From Mobula hypostoma (lineage: Eukaryota), in assembly GCF_963921235.1 (NCBI RefSeq), contig NC_086097.1:123816001-123880000 (forward strand): DNA of 64,000 bases, in the 5' to 3' direction. Under the pieces are notes generated by a model. It saw only the letters and a list, made by a program, of their open reading frames with translations, did no database searches and was not told where the DNA came from. Below are positions 110 to 57,590 of the stretch, piece by piece. Made by a program: the position numbers and the translations under genes. The stretch's first letter is position 1. Each line of letters begins with the position of its first letter.

Positions 110-239
110 TGAGGTGGTTGTTCCCTCTATGGTTGTTCTGAACACCTCAAACCAACAGTACTTTTTACCAGAAACACCAGTTGGGAGCACTGAGGACCTC
201 ATCAAGTTTATTAATAAGATCATGGAAGGATCAGCAGAA
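110..239 (+). CDS. TMX3: TMX3 (thioredoxin-related transmembrane protein 3), internal coding exon (third from last)
   Basis: Acceptor ttctttcag|T, donor GAA|gtaggt. Encodes EVVVPSMVVLNTSNQQYFLPETPVGSTEDLIKFINKIMEGSAE, matching recalled vertebrate TMX3 (VVLNTSNQQYFL...FINNILDG). Confidence 0.93.
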
Positions 240-11511: not shown

Positions 11512-12384
11512 TGTATATCATCATATACTACCCAGAGATTTATTTTCTTGCAGGCATGCACAGTAAAACAAAGAAATACAATGGAATCATTGAAAACTAC
11601 ACACAAAGACTGACAGACAAATGAAGACAAACTACAAATAAAAATAAATAAATAATACTGAGAGCAAGTGTTGTCAAGTCCTTGAAAGTGAGTCCATAGT
11701 TTATGGAATCAGTTTGGAGCTGTTTTGAGTGAAGTTATCCACACTGATACAGGAGCCTGATAGTTGTAGGGTTTACAACCTTATAATGGCTGTAGTTCAA
11801 GGGAAGTCTCTAAGCAAATGCATCTCCAATGCACATAAGGAATGCATCTCTTTTGTGCTGTGGGGAATTCTTTTGTCAAAACACTTCAAGATTGCTTTAT
11901 AAAGGCTTGGACCTAAGCTAAATCCCATCTCCTTGACCTTATCTGAAAATGAAATTCCAACAAAAAATTTACTCCATTATAAACACAAGAGATTCTGCAG
12001 ATGCTGGAAATCCAGAGCAATACATGCAAAACACTGGCGGAACTTAGAATGTCAGGCAGCATCGGTGGAGAGGAATAAACAGTCAATGTTTGGGCCAAGG
12101 TCTGGAAAGAAAGGGGTAGAAGCCAGAATTATTCCACTATTTAATCATTCATTGTGCACCTTGGGTAAAGGTATTTGTTTTTGAAAAGGAAGGTGGGAGA
12201 TGTTAGGTTTCTACTCGTTAGCTAAAACACAACTAAAAGATGCAAACACAAGGAAATCTGCAGATGCTGGAAATTCAAGCAACACACACAAAATGCTGGT
12301 GGAACACAGCAGGCCAGGCAGCATCTATAGGAAGAAGTACGGTCGATGTTTCGGGCCAAGACCTTCCTGAAGGGTATAACTAGG

Positions 12385-13197
12385 TCATTCAGCCCATCAT
12401 GGCTGATTTATCATCTCTCTCAACGCCATTCTCCTGCCTTCTCCCCGTAACCTTTGGCAGCCTAATTAATCAAGAATCTATCAACCTCTGCCTTAAATAA
12501 ACGTAATGATTTGACTTGCGCAGTGATCCGTGGAAAAGAATTCCACATATTCATATTCACCAACCCCCGGGCAAAGAATTTTTTCTTAATAACTGTTCTA
12601 AAAGGACATTCCTCAATTCTGACACTGTGCCCTCTGTTCCTAGACTCCCCCACTACAGGAAACATCCTCTTCATATCCACTCTGTCCAGACCTTTCAATA
12701 TTCGATAGGTTTCAATGAGATCTCCCCTCTCCAGTGAGTACAGGCCCAGAGCCATCAAATGCTCCTCATTCAACCCTTTCATTCCTGGGATCATTCTTAT
12801 GAACCTCTGATAAACTCTCTCCAATGCCAGCACAACCTTTCATAGATAAGGGTCCCAAAACTGCTCATGATAATTCAAGTGCATTCTGACCAATGCCTTA
12901 TAAATCCTCAACATTACAGTCTTGCTTTTGAAATGAATGCTAACAATGCATTTGCATTCCTTACCACTGGCTCAACCTGCAAGTTAACCTTTAGAGAAGT
13001 CTGCATGAGGACTCCCAAGTTGCTCTGCACCTCTGATTTTTGAATTTTCTGACGTACAAGATAATCCAACCCTTTATTCTTCTTGCCAAAGTGCATGACT
13101 ATGCACTTCCCTACATTATATTCCATCTGCTACTCCTTTGCCCATTCCCTGAATCATCTAAGTCCTTCTGCAGACACTCTGCTTCCTCAAAACAACC
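12385..13197 (-). mobile_element. CR1 LINE 3' fragment (decayed), flanked by PLE repeats
   Basis: ORF remnants MEYNVGKCIVMHFG and GLYSLERGDLIETYRILKGLDRVD. Confidence 0.85.
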
Positions 13198-16100
13198 TAA
13201 TCAAATCTGAGCAACACACATAAAAGTTGCTGGTGAACGCAGCAGGCCAGGCAGCATCTGTAGGAAGAGGTAGTCGACGTTTCAGGCCGAGACCCTTCGT
13301 TGGGACTAACTGAAGGAAGAGTGAGTAATATTGTTTGCGTAATCAAATCTGGAATTTTTGTGCAATCATCTGGCTCCACATATTAATATGGAAGAAGAAG
13401 GTATAAAAAAAATGGGTGTTAGGAGAAATATTTGGAGAATGAAATGAGGTTTCTCAAGATCAGATCAAAAAGTTTGTATTACGGGAGCCCTTCTGCCTTC
13501 TTTGCAGTAGTCAAAGTAAGAACTACCTAGCCTAATCTAATCTTCCAGCCCCACAGCTTATAGTGTTTCATAACAGTCGCCTCGTTATAGGAAGGATGTG
13601 GAAACTTTAGAGCAGGTGTGGAGGAGAGTTACCAGAATGCTAACTGAACTAGAGAGAATGTCTTATGAGGATAGGTTAATTGTTTGCATGGCTGTAATTG
13701 GGCAGTGCAGGTTCGTTGGGCTGGAAAAATAAAAAAATAAACACCTACTGGAAATGGCTATTAAGCCACAAAATCACCCATCAGCTATCATCCTTTCCTT
13801 TCTGCCATGGTCAATTTTACTCAACGTTTCACTCTTCAGTGAATTTGTAACATATGGCACCTCACACATACAATCAAAATCAGTTATCACTGTATGGTGA
13901 AAATTCTGTGTACGTCAACAGTAATATTTTGGACATCAATTTTAAGAGTAATTTTAGCATATCAAAAGAGTTATTCCTAACAAGGAATAACTGTAATATG
14001 GAGATAAACAATAGAAATTTCAGTTGTTGAAATCCAGATGTTACCTTTCATCAGAGTGAAGTCCTGTCTTCCTTCTTAAATAGGTAGAAAAGATCTCTTT
14101 GTTATCCTGATGAAAAGCAGTTCTGCTTCCTTGATGTGCTGAGAAATATAAATACCTAGTTTTGCTGACTGTTGCAACATCAAGTGCAGATTTTGTGAAA
14201 GATCATTATACGGAAACAATAACTGTTTTTCTCTGACCACAAATGCCTGGATTAGCTATTCCCTTCATTTTCTGCAGATTTTCAGCACCTACACTTAATC
14301 TCATGATAAATCAAACTCTAGAGCCTTCACCTAAGGTAATTGAACTCTGATACTCACAGCCAAAGTGGTCCACTCTGCACATTTAATAAGTATTTGGATG
14401 AATACTTGAAACATTAAGGCTTCGCAGGCTAAGAGCCGCAGTCTGCTTAATGGGATGAACGTAGATTGACATTTGATAACCAGCACAGATGTGGTTGGCT
14501 GAAGGCCTCCTTCCATGCCGTGTGACACTATAATGTTAATGTATAACTGAAGACTAAAAATAACTTAACATTAAAGATAAAAAGTCTGTGTGTAGTCGAG
14601 AGGAGTTTAAGATTAGATTCGGCTGCCTAGCCAACTGCTAGGGAAAGGCTAGTCAGAGTAGATTTGAGTTAACTGCCCCCAATTTATCTATTATTTAATG
14701 ACAGCTTCTTTAGGCAACCTGGTCTATCAGAAACTGCAGGAAATTTAGAAGAATTGAAATTAATGTGCTCTGAAAGTGAATGCTGTTTCTAATTTCATTA
14801 GTGTGGAGGGAAAGAGGAATACTGAAGAATGCAAGGTTCTTTATGTCTCTACCTAATGAATGCAAAAGCAGCACAAGATGTGTGTCCAGCTAAGAAAAAC
14901 TAATAGTATTTTGTGCGACACACACAAAATGCTGGAGGCTCAGCAGACCACAGTGTAGCTCTTCAGCAAAAGATTCATTGCAAGATAGGAGAGAGGACAT
15001 CCTTGCCTAACTCCAGGTTTGATGGGGAAACTTTCCCATCCATTAATCTGAACTGAACTTTGGATATCTGTGTAGAGCAGTTCGATGCAATTTCTTATTC
15101 CACCCCCAAAACCTATTTATGTGTTTATGAAGGGGAATGAACAGCCGGCATTTCGGGCTGTGACCCTTGTTCATGACTGGCCATTAGGGGTGGAGAACAG
15201 TTGTATGGATGCCTACCCGGTCAGCTTAGGCCAGAAGGCCATCAACAAGATATCACACATATACACGATGGGCATGCTCTCCAAACTGGGTTTTAGGGAG
15301 AGAATCAGAAATTGGATCCAACTGATCTGATTAATGGTTGGGGAAGTCTCCCCATCAAGTCAGGAGTCAGCAGGAATGTCTACTCTCCAGCCTTGTGTGC
15401 TGCGTTAAACCCTTCGCTAAAAAGCTTATACTGTGGCACTTCCCCACAGAGCCTATGCATTGGCTGGACCCAGCTTCAGTGCATCCTTCAACACACACCC
15501 CTGCAGCCTGGAACGTGCCAGTTGGCAGCATTCCTCCACAGACATCTCAATGTGCTGGAAGACCAACAGGTTTCCAGCCAAAGTGCATCTTTCATTGAGC
15601 TGCTGATCTTCCAGCAGCACTTGATTACTTTATTTCCAATAACCATATTGTCATCAACCCAAAACACAATCTGGAGATTCCTGAAATGCCAGTGTGAAAG
15701 CTACAGCAAGGCAAGGGTTAAGGTAATGTCCAGGCAAGGATAGCTTACAGATGGTGTGCAGTCAACCCAGGCAAGGAAGGACTTGGAAGGGCAATTTCCC
15801 TCTACACTGATGGGGACTTGCATCTCATGGCACAACAAATTAAAGATGCAAATGAAGGATTCTAGGGTGACGTTTACTATTGGTCAGTTATTTTACTAAT
15901 TCTTAAATAATATTGGCCTTTAACATGGTTATTAACACAGTACCTTAGTGTGATTGGTGATTCATTATGCAAAGGAATTAGAACAGCCAGAAGGTTTCCA
16001 ATTGGTCAATATCTGTATTCAAATCAATTTCTATATAAAAGCAAGTAATTTCTTTGTTCAAACATTTGAACAGTATGGCAACAGTAGCTATGCTGTTCTC

Positions 16101-23533: not shown

Positions 23534-25062
23534 CATTGCCCATAAAAAGCATTTACCCCGAGTTTTCATGTCTTATTGTTTTACAACATTGAATCACAGT
23601 GGATTTAATTTGCTTTTTTGACAAGGAAGTGTTTTTCTGTTGATCAGTGTCAAAGTGAAAACAGACATCTACAAAGTGATCTAAATTACAAATATTAAAC
23701 TCAAAATGATTGCATAAGTATTCACCACCTTTAATATGACAAACTAAATCATCACTAGTGCAGCCAATTGGTTTTAGAAGTCACATAATTAGTTAAATGG
23801 AGATCACCTGTGTGCAGTCAAGGTGTTTCAATTGTTTGTAGTAACAAGACACCTGTAGGTACAAAGTCCAACTGCTGATGAGTCAGTATCCTGGCAAAAA
23901 CTACACCATGAAGACTGAAGAACACTCCAAGCAACTCGCAAAAAGGTTATTGAAAAGCACAAGTCAGGAGATGGATATAAGAAAATTTCCAAGTCACCAA
24001 ATATCCCTTGGGATACAGTTAAGTCAACATCAAGAAATAGAAAGAAAATGGCAGAGCTGTAAATCTACTTAGACCAGGCTGTCTTCAAAAACTGAGTGAC
24101 TGTGAAAGAAGGGGACGAGTAAGGGAGGCCACTATGATAACTCTGGAGGAGTTGCAAGTTTCAGTGGCTGAGATGGAAGACACTATGCATACAACAACTG
24201 TTGTCTGAGTGCCCACCAGTCACAGTTTTATGGGAGACTGGCAATGAGAAAGCCACTGTAGAAAAAAAAACTCGCTTGAAATCTCAGCTAGAGTTTGCCA
24301 GAAGGCCTGTGGGAGACTCTGAAGTCAGCTGGAAGAAGGTTCTATGGTCTGATGAAACCAAAATTGAGCTTTTTGGCCATCAGACCAAGCACAATACATG
24401 AAAAATACACAATCCCTACCGTGAAGCATAACAGTGGCTGCATCATGCTGTGGAGATGCTTCAGTGCAGCAGGCCCTGGAAGGCTTGAGAAGGTAGAGAG
24501 TAAAATTAATGCAGCAAAATACAGGGAAATCCTGGAAGAAAACCTGATGCAGTCTGCAAGAGAACTGCTACTTAGAAGATTTGTTTCCCAGCAAGACAAT
24601 GACCCCAAACATAAAGCCAAAGCTACACAGGAATGGCTTAGAAACAACAAAGATCATGTCCCAGAATGGCCAAGTTGGAGTCCAGATCTCAGTCCAATTC
24701 AGAATTTGTGGCTGGACTTGAAAAGGGTTGTTCACTTACGATCCCCACGCAATCTGACAGAGCTTGAGCAGTTTTGTAAAGAAAAATGTGGAAAAGTTGC
24801 AGTGTCCAGATGTGCAAAGCTGATAGAGACCTATCCACATAGACTCAAAGGCTGTAACTGCTGCCAAAGACGCATCTACTAAATACCGACTTGAAGGAGA
24901 TGAGTAATTATGCAATTATTTTGTATAATAATCGTAATAAATTTAGACCAATTTGTAGAAATTTGTTTTCACTTTGACACAAAAGTAATGTGTCCAAAAA
25001 TAAACCAAATTAAATCCACTGTGATTCAATGTAAAACAATAAAGCATGAAGCATAGGCACTG
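23534..25062 (+). mobile_element. Tc1/mariner DNA transposon, near full length, transposase disrupted
   Basis: TA flanks (23532-33, 25063-64) and imperfect TIRs (ttgaatcacagtggatttaatttg / caaattaaatccactgtgattcaa). Transposase remnants MKTEEHSKQL, WKKVLWSDETKIELFG, QQDNDPKHKAK, WPSWSPDLSPIQNLW (DD34E-type). Confidence 0.93.
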
Positions 25063-25660: not shown

Positions 25661-25837
<177 letters not shown>

Positions 25838-27245: not shown

Positions 27246-29366
27246 ACAACTTCTCCCTTGCTTTTTTACAAAATTGTCATCATGACCAGTTATCTGATTT
27301 TCTAAGATACAAATTTGAAGAGATTATACAAGCAAAAAAAAATTGAAATGAAGCCATAAATTAGATTGGATGTACCAGAAGCATCTTCACCAAATAGTAT
27401 TTTGGGTTGTCACTAATTGGTTATGGAAAGCAGTAATACCAAATTTGTTAACAGGATAAAATGTTCTCCTTTTCTTTTATTGTACCATTACTGAAATCAG
27501 CACAGCAACATTACAGACACTCATGCCTTCAAGAATATTTTATACAAACTCAATCTCAAAAGTTTGAAATTGAGAGAAGATTGACATCATTTGTCCCACT
27601 GAACCTACATATTTGTGGAACTATATTATTCCTTTTTCCACAAGAATTTTAGTTGCTATTTGATTATTGAATTGCTTTCAGCACATGTTGTTGTTTAGTT
27701 CAGTTTGCTTGAATATTTCTTGCAGTCTCCTTAACTGATGTTGATCAGTTAATCCAGTTATTACTCTTGCCACTGAAAACATCCTTATCATCAAAATTCA
27801 TAACTTGAAGAGTCTTAAAACTCGGTGTCTAAAGTTACCACATCTACAGCCTCATCTTTTCCCAGTGAATCAATTACAAACAAGAATCTTTTACAAACAT
27901 GTGGTTGGTACCTGAAGAACAGAATGCAAGAGCTACTTGGAACAAAGTCAGTAAATCCTTATTGTATTTGTTAAGGAAGATGCTGGCAAAATATTAGAAA
28001 AAGGGGTAGAGGTAGTGGACTGAGGTAAAAATTAACAATAGGTATGTCATTCACAGATTCAGCAGACAGTGGAAACCTTGAGCAACAAACACAAAGTGGT
28101 GGAGGAACTCTGCAGGTAAAGGAGCATCCATGAAGAGGAATAAAGAGTCACGTTTTGGGCAGAGACCCTTTATCAGTACTGGAGAGGCTAGCTAAACCAA
28201 GACTAAACATCACAAGGACCAAGTGGACTGCATCTCAGAATGTGAAGGAAAGTGAGGATAGAGAAGGCAGAACATGCTCTCACCTTCCAATTCTTCCCAC
28301 ATTTTTGTTTTCTCTCAAGAAGTGGGAAAAGTGCCAGAGATTTTTAAGGGCATTTCTAGTAACTGCAGACTGGTCAGCATAACATCTGGTCTAGATGGTG
28401 TTTTAGAGAAAAAAATAATTGGTAAACTTAAGCAAGTCAGCACTTGGATATTTCAATTAAAAACACTGGATCATTAGATAGTGAAATTTGAATTCTCTAC
28501 CATCAGGCTGTGGGGGCTCAGTCATCATATTCATACAATGAACAGATTTCCACACATTGAGAAAATCAAGGATATGGGGAATAGTGCTGCAAAATGGAGC
28601 CAAGGATAATCTGCCATAAGATTAATAAATGGTGGAGCAGGCTTCAGGATCTGACAGCCCCTCCTGCTATTTCTTTTGCAAAGCAAGTAGTCTTTAAGAT
28701 TATGACAGGTTTAGAAAAGGTAGACAAAAAAAAGATGTTCCCATTAGCTCATAAACCTCCTACCCTCAAGTTTTTTTTATTCTGTCTTCCCCTTTCCTCT
28801 CCATTCCTGATGAATGGTTTATTCCTCTCCACAGGAGCAGAACTAGGCCATCCAGCCCATCGAGTCTGCTCCACCATTTGACCACGGCTGACTTATTTTC
28901 CATCTCAAGCCCATTCGCCCCATAACCTTTGATACCCTTATAAATCAAGAACCTATCAACCTTTGCTTTAAGTATACCTAAAAACTGGCCTCCACAGCCC
29001 TTTGTGACAGTGAATTCTGCAGATTCATCATTCTCTGGCTAAAGAAATGGCTCCTCATTTCTGCTCCAAAGAGATATCACTCTATTCTGAGGCTACTTGA
29101 CCTGCTGAGCTCCTCCAGCACTTTGTGTTCCCATTACCTGACGTTTCCGTTGGAGTTAAGTCTGTATCATTCTTTGTATTGTGTGTCTTATATTTTTTTG
29201 TGAATGTACCTGACGTTATGCTCCTCTGCTGCAGCAAGTAATTCATTTCATCTATGCATATGATAATAATCTCAATTTTGTATGTGACGCATCCGCTATT
29301 TTATAGTGTTGGTTACTGTAAGAATTGTGTGGGGTAAAGAGTAACAGATCCATCAAAATGCATTAC

Positions 29367-42350: not shown

Positions 42351-42543
42351 ACACAACATACACAAAATGCTGAAGGAGCTCAACAGGCCAGGCAGCATCT
42401 ATGGAAAAGAGTACAGTGGGCGCTTTGGCCCGAAATGCCCACTGTACACTTTTCCATAGATGCTGCCTGGCCTGCTGAGTTCCTCCAGCATTTTGTGTGT
42501 GTTGCTCAAAGTTCCAGCATCTGCAGATTTTCTCTTGCTTGTG
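42351..42543. mobile_element. Penelope-like fold-back (inverted pLTR) insertion
   Basis: Inverted arms of about 65 bp meeting inside the hammerhead stem II region; 14-bp TSD acaagactgttcca / acaagcctgttcca. Confidence 0.85.
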
Positions 42544-44448: not shown

Positions 44449-47400
44449 TTACATTAAATGAAAATATCGAATAAAAGGTCCCCAAATCTGTTCAAATTTA
44501 AATGAAGAATCATAAAGGTTACTTCTAATTTTCTCCAGATTCAAACATAAAATCGTCTGAGAAAACCAAAAAAAGGTAGTTGGAGCATTAAGCTCTTTCC
44601 AATGTTGTAAAATACATCTTTTCGCCATTAAAGTAAGAAGTGCAATCATTCTACGGGCTGAAGGGGAAAGATTACTAGAAATTTTAGGTAGTCCAAAGAT
44701 AGCAGTAATAGGGTGAGGAGAGATATCTATATTTAATACCTTAGAAATAATATTGAAAATATCTCTCCAAAAAGTTTCCAAAGTAGGGCAAGACCAAAAC
44801 ATATGAGTTAAAGAGGCTATCTGCCCCGAACATCTATCACAGAAAGGATTAATATGCGAGTAAAAACGCGCTAACTTATCTTTGGACATATGTGCTCTAT
44901 GCACCACTTTAAATTGAATTAGGGAATGTTTAGCACAAATAGAGGAAGTATTAACTAATTGTAAAATCTGCCCCCAATCATCCACAGAAATGGTAAGCCC
45001 CAATTCCTGTTCCCAATCTACCCTAATCTTATCAAATGGAGCTTTCCTAAGTTTCATAATAATATTATAAATCATAGCCGATGCACCTTTCTGACATGGA
45101 TTAAGGTTAATTATCGAATCTAAAATATATATAGGAGGAAGCATTGGAAAGGAAGAAAGTATAGTACTTAGGAAATTTCTAACTTGTAAATATCTAAAAA
45201 AATGTATTCTTGATAAGTTATATTTATTAGATAATTGTTCAAAAGACATAAGGGAACCATCTAAAAATAAATCCAAAAACCGTAAAATACCCTTAGTCTT
45301 CCAAGTTTGAAAAGCGCGATCCGTAAAAGAGGGAGGAAAAAATATGTTACCTAAAATAGGAATCGCTAACCCGAATTGATTAAGATCAAAAAATTTTCTG
45401 AATTGAAACCAAATACGCAAAGCATATTTAACGATCGGGTTAGAGACCTGCTTAAGGCGTTTCGAATCAAAAGGAAGAGATGAACCTAAAATAGAACCAA
45501 GTGTATAACCCTGAACAGATTGTAATTCCAATGCTACCCATTTAGGAATAGATAGTATATCCCGGTCAAGTAACCAAAATTTCATATGTCGAATATTAAT
45601 AGCCCAATAATAAAATCTAAAGTTAGATAATGCTAAACCTCCATCTCTCTTAGCTTTCTGTAAATGTATTTTACCCAGTCTCGGATTCTTATTCTGCCAA
45701 ATAAATGAAGAAATTTTAGAGTCGACTTTATCAAAAAAAGATTTAGGAACGAAAATTGGTAATGCCTGAAACACATATAAAAATTTTGGCAAAAAAAACA
45801 TCTTAACTGCATTAATACGACCAATCAAAGTTAAATATAAGGGAAACCATTTAGATGAAAGTTGAGTAATATGGTCTATTAATGATAAAAAGTTAGTCTT
45901 AAATAAATCTTTATGTTTACAAGTAATTTTAATCCCAAGATATGAAAGGTAATTATTAATCAATTTAAATGGAAATTTATAATATAAGGGAAGATGTTTA
46001 TTAATCGGAAAAAGTTCACTCTTACTAAGATTTAATTTATAACCTGAGAAAAGACCAAATTGTGCTAATAACTCTAAAACAACAGGAATAGATCTCTCAG
46101 GATTAGAAATATATAAAAGTAAATCATCAGCATAGAGTGATAATTTATGGGACTTTAATCCCCGAGTTATCCCAGTAATATTTGAAGATTCTCGAATAGC
46201 AATTGCAAGAGGTTCTAATGCAATATCAAATAATAGGGGACTAAGAGGACAGCCTTGTCGAGTACCACGAAAGAGAGGAAAAAAAGGTGAGTTTAAAGAG
46301 TTAGTACGAACCGAGGCTACAGGGGAGTGATATAACAGTTTAATCCAGGATATAAATTTCAAGCTAAAATTAAACATTTCAAGCACCTTAAATAAATAAG
46401 GCCATTCTACTCTATCAAAAGCTTTCTCGGCATCTAAAGAAATAACACACTCAGGAACATTTTGTGAGGGAGTATAAACGATATTTAACAATGTACGAAT
46501 ATTATAAAAAGAGTAACGACCTTTAATAAAACCCGTTTGGTCTTCCGAAATAATAGAAGGAAGTACTTTTTCTAGTCTATTTGCTAATAACTTAGAAAAA
46601 ACTTTAGAATCAACATTTAATAAAGATATTGGTCTATAAGATGCACATTGAGCAGGGTCTTTATCCTTCTTTAGTATTAAAGAAATTGATGCTCTATTAA
46701 AAGATTCCGGAAGTTTACCAAGTTTCAAAGAAGCCTCAAAAACCTTATAGAGCCAAGGAATCAATAAAGAAGCAAAACATTTATAAAATTCAACGGTAAA
46801 CCCATCAGGGCCAGGAGCTTTCCCCAGATTCATAGAAAAAATAACATTCTTAATCTCATCCATTGTAATGGAAGTATCTAATAAAGAAGACATATCCTGT
46901 GAAATCTGAGGAAAGTCTAACTTATCTAAAAAATCATTCATATATTTAGAATCTCGAGGAGACTCTGATTGATATAAAGAAGAATAAAAATCACAAAAGG
47001 TTTGATTAATCCCCACATGATTCAATATCAATCGATCATCTTGGTTATAAATCTGATTGATTTGAGATTTAACATAATTAGATTTCAATTGATTAGCCAG
47101 CAGCTTGCCAATTTTATCACTGTGAACATAAAAATCACTTCTTGTTTTCTTTAATTGGTTTACAATCGAGGACGAGAGTAGTAAACTGTGTTCCATTTGA
47201 AGTTCAGTTCTTTGTTTGTATAGCTCCTCAGAAGGAGCCATAACATATTTCTTATCAATTTCTTTAATCTTGTCCACAATTGCCATCTCCTCCTGCTTCT
47301 GTTTCTTCCTCAAAGCAACGGAATACGAAATAATCTGACCCCGAATATAGGCTTTAAAAGTGTCCCAAAGAGTGTTAACCGAAATATCTTCTGTATGGTT

Positions 47401-48225
47401 AATTGTAAAAAAAAGCTCAATCTGTTCATTCATAAAATTAACAAAGTCCGAGTCCTGAAGCAACAGCGAATTAAAACGCCATTGTCTATTGTTTGGTATA
47501 TTGGCCATAATTTTAATAGAAAGCTTAAGTGGAGCATGATCCGAAATGGTTATAGAATCATAATCACATTTAATCACTGAAGGAATGAGACGAGAATCAA
47601 TAAAAAAATAATCAATTCTTGAATAGGAATGATGAACATGTGAAAAAAAGGAAAAATCTTTTTCCTGAGGATGCAGAAAACGCCAAATGTCCGTCGACCC
47701 AGAATCAGAAAGGAAAAAATTAATCAAATTTGCAGATTTATTAGGTAAAGTCCGTAAAGGAGCCGAACGGTCCAAAGCTGGAGATAAACAGGTATTAAGA
47801 TCTCCGCCCCAAATCAATGAAAACTCGTTCAAATTCGGAAACTGATCAAACAATGATTTATAAAATTCCGGACAATCCATATTAGGAGCATAAACATTAA
47901 CCAAAACTACTTATTTATTAAATAGTAAACCACTAACCAATAAAAATCTACCATTCGGATCAGAGATAATATCCTGTTGTATAAAAGTAACTGAGGAATC
48001 TATAAAAATAGAGACGCCTCGAATCTTAGCATTGGAGTTCGAATGAAATTGTTGTCCCTTCCAGAATTTGAAAAAACGTAGTCTGTCCCCCCTCCGTACA
48101 TGGGTCTCTTGTAAAAATAAAATTTGTGCTTTAAGTCTCCGGAACACTTTAAAAACTGTTTTTCTTTTAATAGGATGATTAAGACCATTAGTATTCCAGG
48201 AGACAAAATTAATAATAGACTCCAT
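44449..48225 (-). pseudogene. L1 ORF2 (APE endonuclease, RT, CCHC), 1259 codons with a single in-frame TAA at 47913-47911
   Basis: SWNTNG, LQETH, VYAPN, GGDLN, YSRIDYF, SDHAP; YRPISLLN, SLDAEKAFD, GTRQGCPLSP, LYADD; CDRC...HMFWSC. ORFs 47911..48279 and 44449..47904 share a frame. Confidence 0.95.
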
Positions 48226-48950
48226 AAATCCTAAAGTCAACCCACAACAAGGAGGATTGACAATAGGCGCGACCCACAAACCCGGAGAGGAAACAGAACA
48301 TACAAAAGATACCAGGGAAAAGGACGCAACCAGAACTTCAATAATGTATATAGCCCAAAGAAAAACAAACTAAAACGTGAAGCCCCTCCCGCCACCCCCC
48401 AGCCCAAGACCCCAAGGCAAAATCTAAAGCAGACCCGCCAGAAAGAAGCAAGCGCTAAAACTACCCCCATGACTTCCGGTATACGCTCCCTAAAAAAAAG
48501 GTATAAATATGAAAAGGATCAGCTAATTGTAAAACAGTAAAAAAATAAGTAAAAAAAAAGTTAGCTCAATTAGAATACACACAGAACAGAACAAAAGCCG
48601 GAAAATATATATTAAAAAAAAAACCACAATAAACCTCAAACTCATGAATAGACACAGCAACAAAAAAAAATAGGATTATTAACATAAAGTGATTATAAAA
48701 AGCAAAACAGAATAAAATTTAAACAAAAACTACAAAATTTAAGGCCGCACAGGAAATACGTAAGATGACAAAAGGGAAGTAACCACCCAGAATCCCCTGG
48801 GAAAAGAAAGAAATGACGCAGTTAAAAAGAAAGTTTAGCAGCCATATTAAGAAATCGAAAGTAAACTTTTCTGCCCAAATAGGGCACAGAAAAGTTAAAA
48901 CCAACCAATTCACAGCCTCCGATCAACGGAGAAAATTAAAAAGAAGGCAA

Positions 48951-49798
48951 TTAAGATGTTGGAGATGAAAGTTGATCCAGATAACTCTGGGCATCCGATG
49001 GAAAATCAAAAAAACGAAGGGCTCCATCTGACATGCGAATCCTTAGACGTGCAGGGTACAGCAGCGCTGGTCTTAAATCCATCTTATAGAATTCCGACAT
49101 CACGGATCTGTAACGGACCCGTTGGTCCCAGATTGGTTTACTGAAATCTTCCACGAATCGGAACTTAAGATCCGAAAAATCAATGAAACCTTTAGATCGA
49201 GCGAATCGAAACAGTCTCTCCTTGTCTTGAAAGTAATGAAAACGTAAGATAACATGCCTAGGTCTATCTAACCTAGACGAGTATGATGGGATTCTGTGAA
49301 CACGATCCAGTAGCGGTGGTTGGTCAGGAAATACAGTAGGAATGGGTTGTTAGCTTCAACGGCTTCCCTCACGCCGATCATTCGTAAATTCTGCCGTCGC
49401 ATTCTAGATTCCAAGTCAGAGTTTTTAAAAGTCAAAAAGTCCAGTTTCTTCTTCATTACATTAATTGTTTCTTCGATTTTCCCCATCTTAAGCTCACTTT
49501 GTTGCGCGAATTTTTGAAGATCAGATATAGCCGACTGATGTTCCGCAATACATGTTTGCATCTTATCAATTAAATCGGCAATTTTCTGGAAATTAGTTGA
49601 GATTTCCGTATGAATCAGGTCTTTAACAAAGCCTGCAATTTCCGTACGAATCATCTCCCTAACAGAGGTTGAAATTTCCCTCTGAATTAACTCCGATATC
49701 GCTTTCAAAGTCACCGGTGATTCAGTCGGAGGGAGATCCGTAGCTTTCGGTTTAACCGGAGGTTTACCATCCTTGCCGTCTTTCCCGTTCTTAGACAT
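48951..49798 (-). pseudogene. L1 ORF1 (coiled coil, RRM, CTD) with one frameshift near 49345
   Basis: DLESRMRRQNLRMIGVRE, then in another frame LDRVHR...RPRHVILRFHYFQDKE...EDFS...ALLYPARLRI. Confidence 0.9.
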
Positions 49799-50499
49799 AG
49801 CAGATCTAAGTATCATCCAATTGTCAGAGAATTCAGTTTAATTCAAAGTATTGTAAAAATTGATGCCTTAATGGTTAATTAAAGTATAGCTGACCATAGA
49901 GAAAAAAAACTCAGAGGTAATGGAGCGAGTCAAGAACGCGACTTCACTCCATGAGCGCTACCGGAAGTCCCTCAGAAAAATCTCAAGGACAATTAATTCC
50001 TTATACCAGGCGGTAAGGTCCGTAACCAGCCATTAAGGACAGGAGGGAGCTGGGAAAAACAAGGTTGCTTCTCCAGTGGTAGATGGGATGGAGGCGAAGA
50101 GCAGTCCTACATTGTTTCTTCCAGCCACCAAGACTGATAGTTCTTTACTCGTAAGTCTTTCACAACCAACCATGAGACCAAAATACAGAAATGAGTATCA
50201 TTGTTCTCCCACACCCATCACCTCCCACTATGATAAAATACCTTCCGCCAATCCTAATACCCTTACACTGGCCTGGTCTTTATTTTCCGCCCCCCCCCGC
50301 CCCCACCCCCGGCCACCACTTCCCCATAGTCACCTTACCACAGGAGCAACTCAAATCTTCCTTCACCATTTCACAACCTCTCCTAACCAACACAACCCCT
50401 GACTACAGCACAGGCCCCATTGCAGCCCATGAATGCTGGCCATGTCAATCCCTGAATCCGACTTAATTCCTGATTCCTGAATGTTTTCCTTGATTTTCA

Positions 50500-51439: not shown

Positions 51440-52091
51440 CTGAAATGTAAGATATTTCAGAATATATCAAATAATTACTGGAAAAAGCCTCGTTACTGCA
51501 GTTTAATACATATTGCAAAGTCTACTCTTTCTGCATTCTTCAAAGAGACAACTTTGATATTCAGAGTAGCACAAACAAAAGGCTGGAGGAACTCTGCACG
51601 TCAGGCAGCATCTATGGAAGGGAATAAATGTTTAACATTGAGCCGAGACCCTTCATCAGGACCTGATATGAAAGGTCTCAGGGATGGCTTTGACATTCAG
51701 AATAACATGCCCAAAATGCTGGAGGAACTCAGCAGGTTCTAGCATCTATGGAGGGGAATAAATAATCAGTGTTTCGGGTCAAAACCATTCATCGGGGCCT
51801 GATATGAAAGATCTCAGCCTGAATTGTTCCTCTCCATAGTTACTGTCTGACCTGCTGAGGTCCTCCAGCATTTTATGTTTGTTACTCTGGATTTTTAGCA
51901 TCTGCAGAAACTTTTGTGCTTATGATTTTGAGATTCAAAATCTGTTCCGATGGCATGAATTCCATTCCTTCCTTCTAAGAATGAAGGTGAATGGCCAAAG
52001 GTGTTTTTTTCCATCTCAACAAATTCCTGTGCATGCCATCCAAAATCTGGTTTGCAATACTCAATACCGGGCAAGTTCACTTTGGACTCAC

Positions 52092-52815: not shown

Positions 52816-52909
52816 CTGCAATTGTCCCTTGCTCCATAGTCGCTTGTCTTAAAATCAGTGCCTTCTCCCTATCCAGTGCCTCCACGTATTTGGACAAGGA
52901 CCAGGAAAG
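52816..52909 (-). CDS. RGS22: RGS22 (regulator of G-protein signalling 22) coding exon (94 nt)
   Basis: tcctctacag|...GCAG|gtaaac. Encodes LSWSLSKYVEALDREKALILRQ, resembling recalled human RGS22 PTWCYSKYIEALEQERILLKIQ. RGS22 is upstream of COX6C on the same strand in human. Confidence 0.82.
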
Positions 52910-53620: not shown

Positions 53621-55331
53621 AGGAAAAGGGTGATAAAGGCTTGTTAACTGCAGTTGGTCTGTTTGGAGTGGATAAATAAAGAAGCTAAGTGAAGACAGAG
53701 GAAAGGGAGAACAAAAAAAAACAAGAAAATAATCACTGGAACTGTAAAATATAAACTAGAGAAGCAAAGCATTAAAAAAACAGAAAATGGCAGAGAAACT
53801 CAGCAGGTCACACAGCATCTGTATAGAAAAATAAAGAGTCGACATTTTAGCCCAAGACCCTTCATCAGGACCGGAAAGGAAGGGGTGGAAGCCAGAATAA
53901 GGTGGTGGGGTGGGAGGAGTGGGGGAGAGGAGCACAAGCTAGATGATAGGTGAGACCAGGAGAGGGGGAGGGCGGATAGGTGGGGGAGGAGGATGGAGTG
54001 AGAAGATGGGAAAAGGTAAAGTGCTGGAGAAGAAGGAATCTGACAGGAGAGGAGAGTGAACTGCGGAAGAAAATGAAGGAGGAGGGGCACTTGAGGGAGG
54101 TGATGGAGATGAGAAAGGGTAAGAGGGGAGGCAGAATGCGGAATGGAAAAAGAGAGGAAGGGAGTGGGAAAAATTACCAGAAGTTAGAGAAATCAATGCT
54201 CATGCCATAATGCAACATTTGCAAAGGATTCATGTTGATTAATTAGTGGAATGGCATGTTTGTCATTTAAGAACAGGTGAAATGTACTTGGCTGAAGCTC
54301 CCAAGAGTTTAGAAGAACGAATGGTGATCTTGATACGTGCAATGATTTTAAGGAACTTGACAGGGTCAGGTTAGAGCTAGTGACTGCCCCTGGCTCAGTG
54401 TGTCTAGAACCATAAGACACAGTCTCAAGGTAGGACATCAGCAAATCAGGCCAGAGACAAGAAATTATGTCTTCACCCAGGTAAGGAATCTTGGGAATTC
54501 TCAACACAAGAGGAAAGTGGAGGCTCAGTCACTAAGTATCTTCAAGATAGAGATAGATAGATTTTTAAACACTAATTGAATCAAGTGATATGGAGCTAGT
54601 GCAGGAAAATGACCTTGAAATAAAAGACCAACCATAATCTTGTTGAACGGTGGAACAGGCGCCAGCAACTAAGTGGAAATTCTTTATATTTCATATATTG
54701 GTCTTTTGCTGAAAATCTGAATTAAAAGTAGAATGGAGGAAATATTCAGCAAGCCAGGCAGCATTGACAGAGAAAGAAACATAATGAAGTGACCTAGTGG
54801 AGGGGAAACTAGAGTTGAGGCATCTCAGAAGCATGAATGTGGAAGGTAACAACATCAGAGGGAATATAGAGCAGCTGGAGAAACAGGGAGAATGGAATAA
54901 AGTCCTTGCAAGTAGCAAGGTGGGAAGATGGATTTTAAATGCTATTGGCTAAAGTTCAAAGTAAATTTACTATCGAAGTATGTACATGTCACAGTATACT
55001 ACCCTGAGATTCGTTTTCTTGCAGGCACTCACAGAAGTACAAAGAAATACAATAGAATCAATGAAAAGCTGCACACAAAGTCTAACAAGGAACCAATGTG
55101 CTAAAGAAGAGAAACTGTAAATACAAATAATAATAAATAAGTAAATAATACGGAGAACACGAGTTGAGAATCCTTGAAACTAAGTCCATAGCTTGTGGAA
55201 TCAGTTCAGATTTGAAGTAAGTGAAATTATCCATGCTGGATCAGGATGAATGAAGGAAATGCCTATTCCTAAACCTGGTGGCCATTATGCATGGTCCAGA
55301 TATTATCAGAAAACCAAGCAGGTAATAAGAA

Positions 55332-55632
55332 AAACACATCAAAGTTGCTGGTGAACGCAGCAGGCCAGGCAGCATCTCTAGGAAGAGGTACAGTCGACGT
55401 TTCGGACTGAGACCCTTCGTCAGGACTAACTGAAAGAAGAGCTATCTCCCCCTCCCCCTCTCGCTTTCAAATCTCTTCCTAGCTCTTCTTTCAGTTAGTC
55501 CTGAGGAAGGGTCTCGGCCCAAAACGTTGACTGTACCTCTTCCTATAGATGCTGCCTGGCCTGCTGCGTTCACCAGCAACTTTGATGTGTGTTGCTTGAA
55601 TTTCCAGCATCTGCAGAATTCCTCATGTTTTC
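55332..55632. mobile_element. Young Penelope-like fold-back insertion carrying two opposed hammerhead motifs
   Basis: Perfect 14-bp TSD gcaggtaataagaa (55318-31 / 55633-46); 111-bp inverted arms 55334-55444 and 55480-55590 with about 6 mismatches. Confidence 0.92.
55391..55428 (-). ncRNA. Minimal type-I hammerhead ribozyme motif, core intact
   Basis: UAGUC-CUGACGA-A-GGGU(CUCA)GUCC-GAAA-CG-UC-GACUG; palindromic ACGU in place of stem III. Confidence 0.72.
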
Positions 55633-55667
55633 GCAGGTAATAAGAATATTATTCTGTAACTTCTTAC

Positions 55668-55688
55668 CTTTTGGCCATGACTTTCAAC
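55668..55688 (-). CDS. RGS22: RGS22 21-nt microexon (VESHGQK)
   Basis: ttttctctacag|GTT...AAG|gtaaga, phase 0-0; joins in frame to the LSWSLSKY exon and aligns with recalled human LQPYGRQ. Confidence 0.75.
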
Positions 55689-56724: not shown

Positions 56725-57590
56725 CTGGGCACAAGAGGTTCTGTAGGTACTAGAAATCCAGAGCAACACACACAAAATGCTGGAGGAACTCAGCAGGTCA
56801 AGGGGCATCTATAGAAGAGAATAAACAGTCGATGTTTCAGGCCAAGACTCTTCGTCAGGACAGGAAATGAAGGGAGAAGAAGCCAGAATAAGAAAGTGGG
56901 GGAGAGAAAGGATTACAAGTTGACAGGTGGACCAGGTGAGGGAGGGTGGGGGAGGGGATGAACAAGGGAGCAGGGAGGTGATAGGAGGAAGAGGTAAAAG
57001 GCTGAAGAAAAAGGAATCTGATAGGAGAAGAGAATGGAGTATAGGAGAAGGGGAAGGAGGGAAGTGACGGACAGGGGTAAGAGGGGAGCCAGACTGGAGA
57101 ATAGAAAAGGAAAGAAAGGGGAAGGGGAGAAATTACTGGAAGCTGGAGAAATTGATATTCCTGCCATCAGGTTGGAGGCTACCCAGACAGAATATGAGCT
57201 GTTGCTCTTCCAATCGGAGAGTGGCCTGATTGTGGCAGAAGAGGAGCCCATGGACTGACATTTCAGACTGGGAATGGGGCGCTGAATTGAAATGGGTGGC
57301 TACCAGGAAATTCTGGACAGAGAGAAGGTGCTCGATGAAGCAGTCCTCCACTTTATGTCATGTGTTACTGATGGACAGGAGCCTGCACTGGGAGCACCGG
57401 ATGCAGTAGATTACCACAATAAACTTACAGGTGAAGTGTCGCCTCACCTGGAAGGGCTGTTTGTGGCCTTGAATGGTGGTGTAGGGGGAGGTGTAGCACT
57501 TGTCCCGCTTGCAGGGATAAGTGCCAGGAGAGAGATCAGCAGGGACAGATGAATGGATAAGGGTGTTCCATAGAGAGCAATCTGAGTGGA
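56725..57590 (-). mobile_element. Penelope-like element 3' fragment: GIY-YIG endonuclease remnant plus terminal repeat
   Basis: HFTCKFIVVIYCIRCSQCRLLSI; FIEHL..VATHFNSAPHS...LEEQQLIFCLGSLQPDGRN; degenerate hammerhead at 56826-56862. Confidence 0.88.

Follow-up and report, generated by a model that had tools for sequence, protein, structure and literature searches.

A Penelope-like fold-back insertion with a probably silent hammerhead motif beside an RGS22 microexon of Mobula hypostoma

Penelope-like elements (PLEs) typically insert with an adjacent inverted and truncated pLTR, a tail of 30-40 bp on one side only, and a target site duplication (TSD), as set out in parts of PMC3846280 and PMC8557442. 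The element protein cuts and extends both strands at AT-rich sites, and the tail matches two start sites of reverse transcription (in the relevant sections of PMC11167929). A CX2-5CxxC linker between the reverse transcriptase (RT) and the endonuclease (EN) is used to define Neptune elements (PMC8557442, in part). Single minimal hammerhead motifs were reported not to cleave and dimers to show low activity (PMC4209133, main passages), and an anole Penelope hammerhead to cleave only with the element protein (PMC11167929). In the supplements of PMC4209133, hammerheads are given for each species, and those of cartilaginous fishes might be among them.

Here we describe an insertion in a 64,000-nucleotide stretch of Mobula hypostoma DNA (the window) that lies within RGS22, a gene whose product is described in part of PMC13443885 as a radial-spoke protein of motile cilia. 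The insertion is real, its anatomy had been read correctly, and it belongs to a known kind. Our preferred interpretation, to which we assign a probability of roughly 0.86, is that it represents a dead, 5'-truncated Penelope fold-back that is decaying neutrally, with a hammerhead kept silent by causes other than the antisense arm.

The insert, its host gene, and its parent family

The features on which the description is based are the following, in window coordinates.

52816..52909, minus strand: next RGS22 exon (LSWSLSKY...), from splice-site heuristics and the gene model
55318..55331, strand not applicable: left TSD (14 bp), GCAGGTAATAAGAA
55332..55444, minus strand: inverted tail-less pLTR arm, sense with RGS22, ending at the tail-less 3' end of the family
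55391..55428, minus strand: minimal type-I hammerhead motif, predicted cut 55396/55395
55445..55479, plus strand: 35-nt loop, the 5'-truncated start of the right arm (family pLTR), from the listed family copies
55480..55590, plus strand: direct pLTR arm, hammerhead dead (G12A at 55521, C17T at 55528)
55591..55632, plus strand: one-sided Penelope tail of about 40 bp, from the bimodal family 3' ends and the Fig. 2 legend of PMC8557442
55633..55646, strand not applicable: right TSD (14 bp), GCAGGTAATAAGAA
55668..55688, minus strand: 21-nt in-frame RGS22 microexon, VESHGQK, from gene models and homologous 7-mers

The two TSD copies match at 14 of 14 positions and enclose 301 bp, and the arms (55334-55444 and 55480-55590) are identical at 105 of 111 positions, a repeat search stretching both to 118 nt at 93% identity. 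Direct comparison therefore bore out every coordinate that a sequence-only reading of the window had given for a 14-bp TSD, a 301-bp insertion, and 111-bp inverted arms; its distance of 35 nt from the microexon donor to the insert was likewise correct. The minus-strand insert has a predicted fold of -217.9 kcal/mol with a long arm duplex that is 95% paired, and the listed family copies likewise have the loop sequence ahead of the arm. Since the arms are inverted rather than tandem, the head-to-tail arrangement of a non-LTR retrozyme is not present. Judged from its sequence, the insert consists of two 3' ends of a Neptune-like Penelope element set back to back, with the tail on one arm.

The microexon (55688-55668) is preceded by a strong pyrimidine tract and a CAG acceptor and followed by a GTAAGA donor. 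A scan with eight short RGS22 motifs revealed no exon in the window, and splice-site heuristics then found one. For the exon at 52909-52816, RGS22 was the best match among solved structures, a weak one (E 0.76). A search with an exon located upstream of the window recovered RGS22 proteins, of which one was 100% identical and bore the source label Mobula hypostoma. The RGS22 model of this species maps in 24 stretches to the minus strand over about 121 kb and reads ...SQQ-VESHGQK-LSWS; VESHGQK recurs in the M. birostris model. Skates and Narcine have homologous 7-mers, as do mammals (LQPYGRQ); exactly these seven residues are absent from two of the six Narcine models (P0122, P0123). The exon is thus in frame, within the 27-nt limit set for a microexon, included in gene models, and conserved, so that both the RGS22 identity and the 21-nt microexon of the earlier reading stand. 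At the level of gene models, the microexon appears real, far older than the insert, and skippable in another ray. As a separate observation, several Narcine models (P0005, P0122-P0125) indicate that the microexon and the preceding 22-residue exon are alternatively skipped. A search of sequencing runs returned eight rows with shares of 0.07-0.08, no RNA run being listed; exon 52816-52909 gave no contig in four of four runs, which has no bearing either way on expression, and comparison of four runs with 15 kb gave a signal swamped by repeats.

A 34-mer from the arm has 56,614 exact genome matches, giving a family of at least 56,614 copies. The perfect hammerhead 34-mer is present in 6,605 genome copies, a set that does not contain the RGS22 locus, and its G12A form in 1,561; reversed-pattern controls gave 0 matches. 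Longer copies contain, in order, RT, thumb, CxxC linker, GIY-YIG, stop, and then the pLTR seen in the insert. GIY-YIG was found in all three longer copies (E 3e-5 to 8e-4, one above the curated cut-off) and RVT_1 in one of them (E 2.4e-5, below the cut-off). Copy L257 has a single open frame spanning the RT motif to GIY-YIG and, like L022 and L027, contains the Cx4CxxC linker CKRNKCYTC, which conforms to the CX2-5CxxC pattern of Neptune between RT and EN. The Penelope origin claimed for the insert is supported by the RT, linker, and GIY-YIG that precede the same pLTR in these copies. With RT followed by a C-terminal GIY-YIG ending just before the pLTR, and with an inverted truncated pLTR, an optional one-sided tail, and a TSD, the parent is by its sequence features an endonuclease-bearing (EN+) PLE. 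Its Neptune-like placement follows from the linker rather than from an RT tree, and Nematis remains the alternative.

Within the commonest subfamily, hammerhead position 11.1 is T in 72 of 113 copies, and G12, the other half of the 11.1 CpG, is altered in only 6 of 113. The amplification of this subfamily apparently took place with the conserved G-C pair replaced by a G10.1-U11.1 wobble, in agreement with the report that the hammerhead is dispensable for insertion in vitro (in part of PMC11167929).

Other repeats were noted in the window. Older Penelope pLTR remnants lie at 12099-13321, 28057-28180, 42354-42540, 51556-51909, 53871, and 56768-56861, some of them as small inverted pairs. An L1-like LINE with an open 1153-aa RT frame and remnants of endonuclease and ORF1 (44449-49837, minus strand) sits in the last RGS22 intron on the strand of the gene, and a DDE_3 transposase remnant occupies 24292-24882 on the plus strand.

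The hammerhead motif and its predicted activity

On the minus strand, the core comprises CTGACGA (55423-55417), GAAA (55403-55400), CG, T, and C17 at 55396, in agreement with the cut that had been predicted between 55396 and 55395. Helix I has 5 bp, the letters of the G10.1-C11.1 pair are kept, and a palindromic ACGT replaces helix III. The minimal type-I anatomy that had been recognized earlier (core letters, a base after A9, G10.1-C11.1, and palindromic 15.2-16.2) is accordingly found, in the left arm only. In the plus-strand copy, GAAA has become AAAA (55521) and C17 has become T (55528), both CpG-type changes, which confirms the loss of G12 and C17 there.

The description of the left-arm hammerhead as intact was correct for the catalytic core letters, which are complete, and not for helix II, which is substituted at 55408 and 55406. 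The change at 55408 is CpG-type and lies in loop II; that at 55406 is a private helix II change found in 0 of 113 unselected copies. The helix II hairpin is not predicted to be stable (+1.9 kcal/mol versus -3.7 in a perfect natural copy), and the probability of the G10.1-C11.1 pair is 0.008 versus 0.994, as estimated with folding models in which the hammerhead core goes unscored. In the predicted minimum, the altered loop letters form a competing helix with the 3' strand of helix I. A modelled double hammerhead has -6.7, compared with -17.9 for the perfect copy. A short helix II may retain activity if G10.1-C11.1 stays.

An Rfam scan gave no hammerhead family at E<=10, as expected for a motif this minimal. 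In a descriptor scan of the RGS22 span, one sense motif passed, that at 55391..55428. Among 12 related copies in RGS22, the other sense copy bearing the core (near 56861) is without helix II and the palindrome, and no competent second sense hammerhead for a cis dimer was found in the RGS22 span. Activity of the left-arm ribozyme is therefore unlikely by these predictions, owing to the absence of a cis dimer partner, the weakened helix II, and the reported need for the element protein. Elsewhere, a 5.3-kb complex tandem and inverted Penelope locus (C1:123707269-123712563) contains five core-bearing hammerhead motifs on both strands, and cis dimers could form there.

Arrangement, splicing, and origin of the fold-back

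The sequence-only reading had proposed that the complementary arm captures the hammerhead in a duplex, a safety catch by which an intact ribozyme could persist in a host intron. Folding of the growing transcript indeed predicted that the motif is captured on emerging, with a mean unpaired probability of 0.07-0.08. Whichever way a head-to-head pair is transcribed, its antisense arm precedes the sense arm, so the predicted duplex would be a by-product of geometry. Moreover, as the ribozyme is predicted to be inactive for independent reasons, there would be little for a safety catch to restrain. Our search found no precedent for the idea in a literature whose coverage was thin for subscription journals.

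In the form of passive shelter, the safety catch would mean that hammerheads of this family in sense orientation within introns carry a mild cost, arising for instance from trans-dimers or the element protein in the germ line, and that fold-backs escape purifying selection as the antisense arm locks the motif; we regard this as quite improbable. The strong predicted sequestration is in its favor, as is the under-representation of tandem hammerhead retrozymes in frog introns, described in part of a 2026 preprint (10.64898/2026.07.22.740005). Introns cut by a hammerhead were still spliced, according to earlier work cited in a passage of PMC2995048.

We compared orientation and arrangement in RGS22 and in 1.4 Mb of three giant genes, delimited by CUB exons on the same strand. 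The three were recognized only from clusters of CUB exons, are presumed each to be a single gene, and are taken to be CSMD. The test comprised 55 copies at least 85% identical, the RGS22 insert being excluded, and a copy was scored as a fold-back if an inverted arm lay within 2 kb. VPS13B, which in human presumably occupies the place beside RGS22, had been expected as a large test gene; a thioredoxin-like exon was found instead (110-239, plus strand, E 0.03, beyond RGS22, presumably resembling TMX3), and the CUB-repeat genes were used. A COX6C exon (25665-25789, minus strand, E 2.5e-16) also lies beyond RGS22, and the local gene order may differ from that of human. Orienting 89 family loci by host exons within 1.5 kb yielded one recognizable exon among 75 candidates. 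At locus L021 (709-900, 1501-1650, plus strand), a single family copy that has lost G8 lies 600 bp after, and on the same strand as, an exon that we take to be stathmin-like.

The 55 young copies comprised 26 sense and 29 antisense, and this lack of overall depletion of sense copies argues against such harm. The core was kept in 6 of 8 sense fold-backs and 12 of 18 sense singles (Fisher p=1.0), so that the enrichment of intact cores in sense fold-backs expected from the safety catch was not observed, at low power, in the 1.4 Mb and RGS22; the antisense values were 7/8 and 18/21. The strict motif was present in 2/8 sense fold-backs versus 2/18 sense singles (Fisher p=0.56, underpowered) and in 0/8 antisense fold-backs versus 5/21 antisense singles. 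This strict class leans weakly in the direction that sheltering by the arm would produce, in an underpowered test; contrasts between fold-backs and singles gave p values of 0.2-1.0 over six settings, none significant. Sense singles kept the core slightly less often than antisense singles (p 0.13-0.42), as with 12/18 versus 18/21 (p=0.26) or, in another setting, 21/58 versus 27/53 (p=0.13), which leans against the neutral reading. A profile search, in which 210 of 299 matches covered the core, gave the same picture.

The core letters were retained in 43 of the 55 young intragenic copies and in 21 of the 22 unselected copies, out of 30, that extended over the core. Exact perfect motifs in the 1.4 Mb numbered two sense and three antisense, with about 1.3 per strand expected. 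Two of the three best-preserved sense copies are true fold-backs with the partner over the motif, compared with none of the three best antisense copies, which would favor shelter by the arm. Against it, a perfect sense copy in giant gene C2 is without an arm of its own, the nearby inverted copies being older (75-78% identical), and the RGS22 locus has decayed in helix II anyway. The core thus survives in most young copies regardless of arrangement, helix II is weakened here, and a competent cis partner is missing, and the safety catch as proposed is not upheld; a small effect of shelter is possible. The wider proposal that sense-intronic fold-backs of rays silence themselves and keep competent ribozymes where singles are purged, their hairpins forming an ADAR and splicing layer that includes the RGS22 microexon, we also hold to be quite improbable.

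Long intronic duplexes are substrates of ADAR, and the hairpin rather than the ribozyme might matter, a 111-bp duplex some 77 nt from the donor altering inclusion of the microexon or attracting editing. The length and 95% pairing of the duplex are compatible with this, and the skipping in two of six Narcine models indicates that the microexon can be regulated. However, the predicted pairing of the donor is unchanged (0.24-0.26 with the insert versus 0.24 without), the NCBI model for the Mobula hypostoma genome includes the microexon, and no private A-to-G type change on the RGS22 strand was found in either arm. Any editing would be common to thousands of such hairpins as a class. We consider a consequence of this kind very improbable; any effect on splicing would appear in sperm or ciliated tissue, given the radial-spoke role described for RGS22.

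The geometry of the insert recurs across the genome. A back-to-back partner within 1.5 kb was found for 7 of the 29 closest other copies and for 5 of 28 copies with a perfect hammerhead (2 of 30 were dropped, with no focal match passing the filter). Among 100 listed places, pairs within 300 bp were back-to-back in six cases and facing or tandem in none. At 6 compact fold-backs per 100 listed places, applied to 56,614 matches, the genome is estimated to contain a few thousand, a figure extrapolated roughly from the initial 5.2 Mb of one contig. The 3' ends of the family are bimodal (tail or no tail), with two sites about 35 nt apart. In most of the 25 back-to-back pairs listed, as in the RGS22 insert, the tail is on one arm only, and the inter-arm distance among these pairs varies from 0 to about 5 kb. 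As spacing differs from locus to locus, the inversion was most likely made anew at each landing. That a short, palindromic, TSD-flanked unit without an ORF moved whole, in the manner of a MITE, has a negligible chance of being correct, given this variation and a junction shared by none of the 29 closest copies.

Of eight fold-backs in which hammerhead position 7 is G in one arm, seven have C there in the other, at loci chosen for likeness to the RGS22-insert arm. This discordance was set aside as a sign of two templates, since the loci were so chosen and the variant is rare (4 of 102 unselected copies); it probably reflects recurrent mutation and the choice of loci, two templates being possible.

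Under the preferred interpretation of a neutrally decaying fold-back, AT-rich DNA would have been cut in staggered fashion by the element endonuclease, and reverse transcription would have started from both known sites, the one with the tail and the one without it. The two resulting copies may then have been joined head-to-head in one step, as suggested by the bimodal family ends and by part of PMC11167929. The insertion would have landed in the intron after the older RGS22 microexon with a 14-bp target duplication, and the core letters of the left arm would have survived by chance, as in most young copies.

As it stands, the insert is of little consequence, being one among an estimated few thousand compact fold-backs. 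Shelter by the antisense arm, if true, would be a new way in which the geometry of integration lowers the cost of a retroelement to its host, and would offer a means of testing in vivo if Penelope hammerheads cleave at all. This genome, which has 6,605 perfect motifs, is well suited to a count for that purpose.

Comparison with known systems

Inverted Alu pairs form long intronic duplexes near exons. The RGS22 insert is also predicted to form a long intronic duplex near an exon, but one probably made in a single integration. With the Neptune clade, the family shares a C-terminal GIY-YIG that has CxxC between its motifs, and the upstream Cx4CxxC linker.

The motif shares with the metazoan PLE pLTR hammerheads described in parts of PMC4209133 and, for PAc, PMC11167929 the core letters, the unpaired base after A9, G10.1-C11.1, a helix I of 4-5 bp, and the palindromic vestigial helix III. 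Helix II has 4 bp in the family, whereas two G-C and two G-U pairs would form it in the RGS22 insert. The RGS22 motif is a single copy with no cis partner.

The closest likeness is to the EN+ PLE insertion units exemplified by Pen2a_Av (PMC3846280; PMC8557442 Fig. 2, as far as these sections describe them), with which the insert shares head-to-head arms, a tail on one arm, a TSD, and an AT-rich target. It differs from Pen2a_Av-type units in being without an ORF, through truncation, and in having arms 35 nt apart; its TSD is 14 bp, compared with 8-10 bp in the rotifer examples given there.
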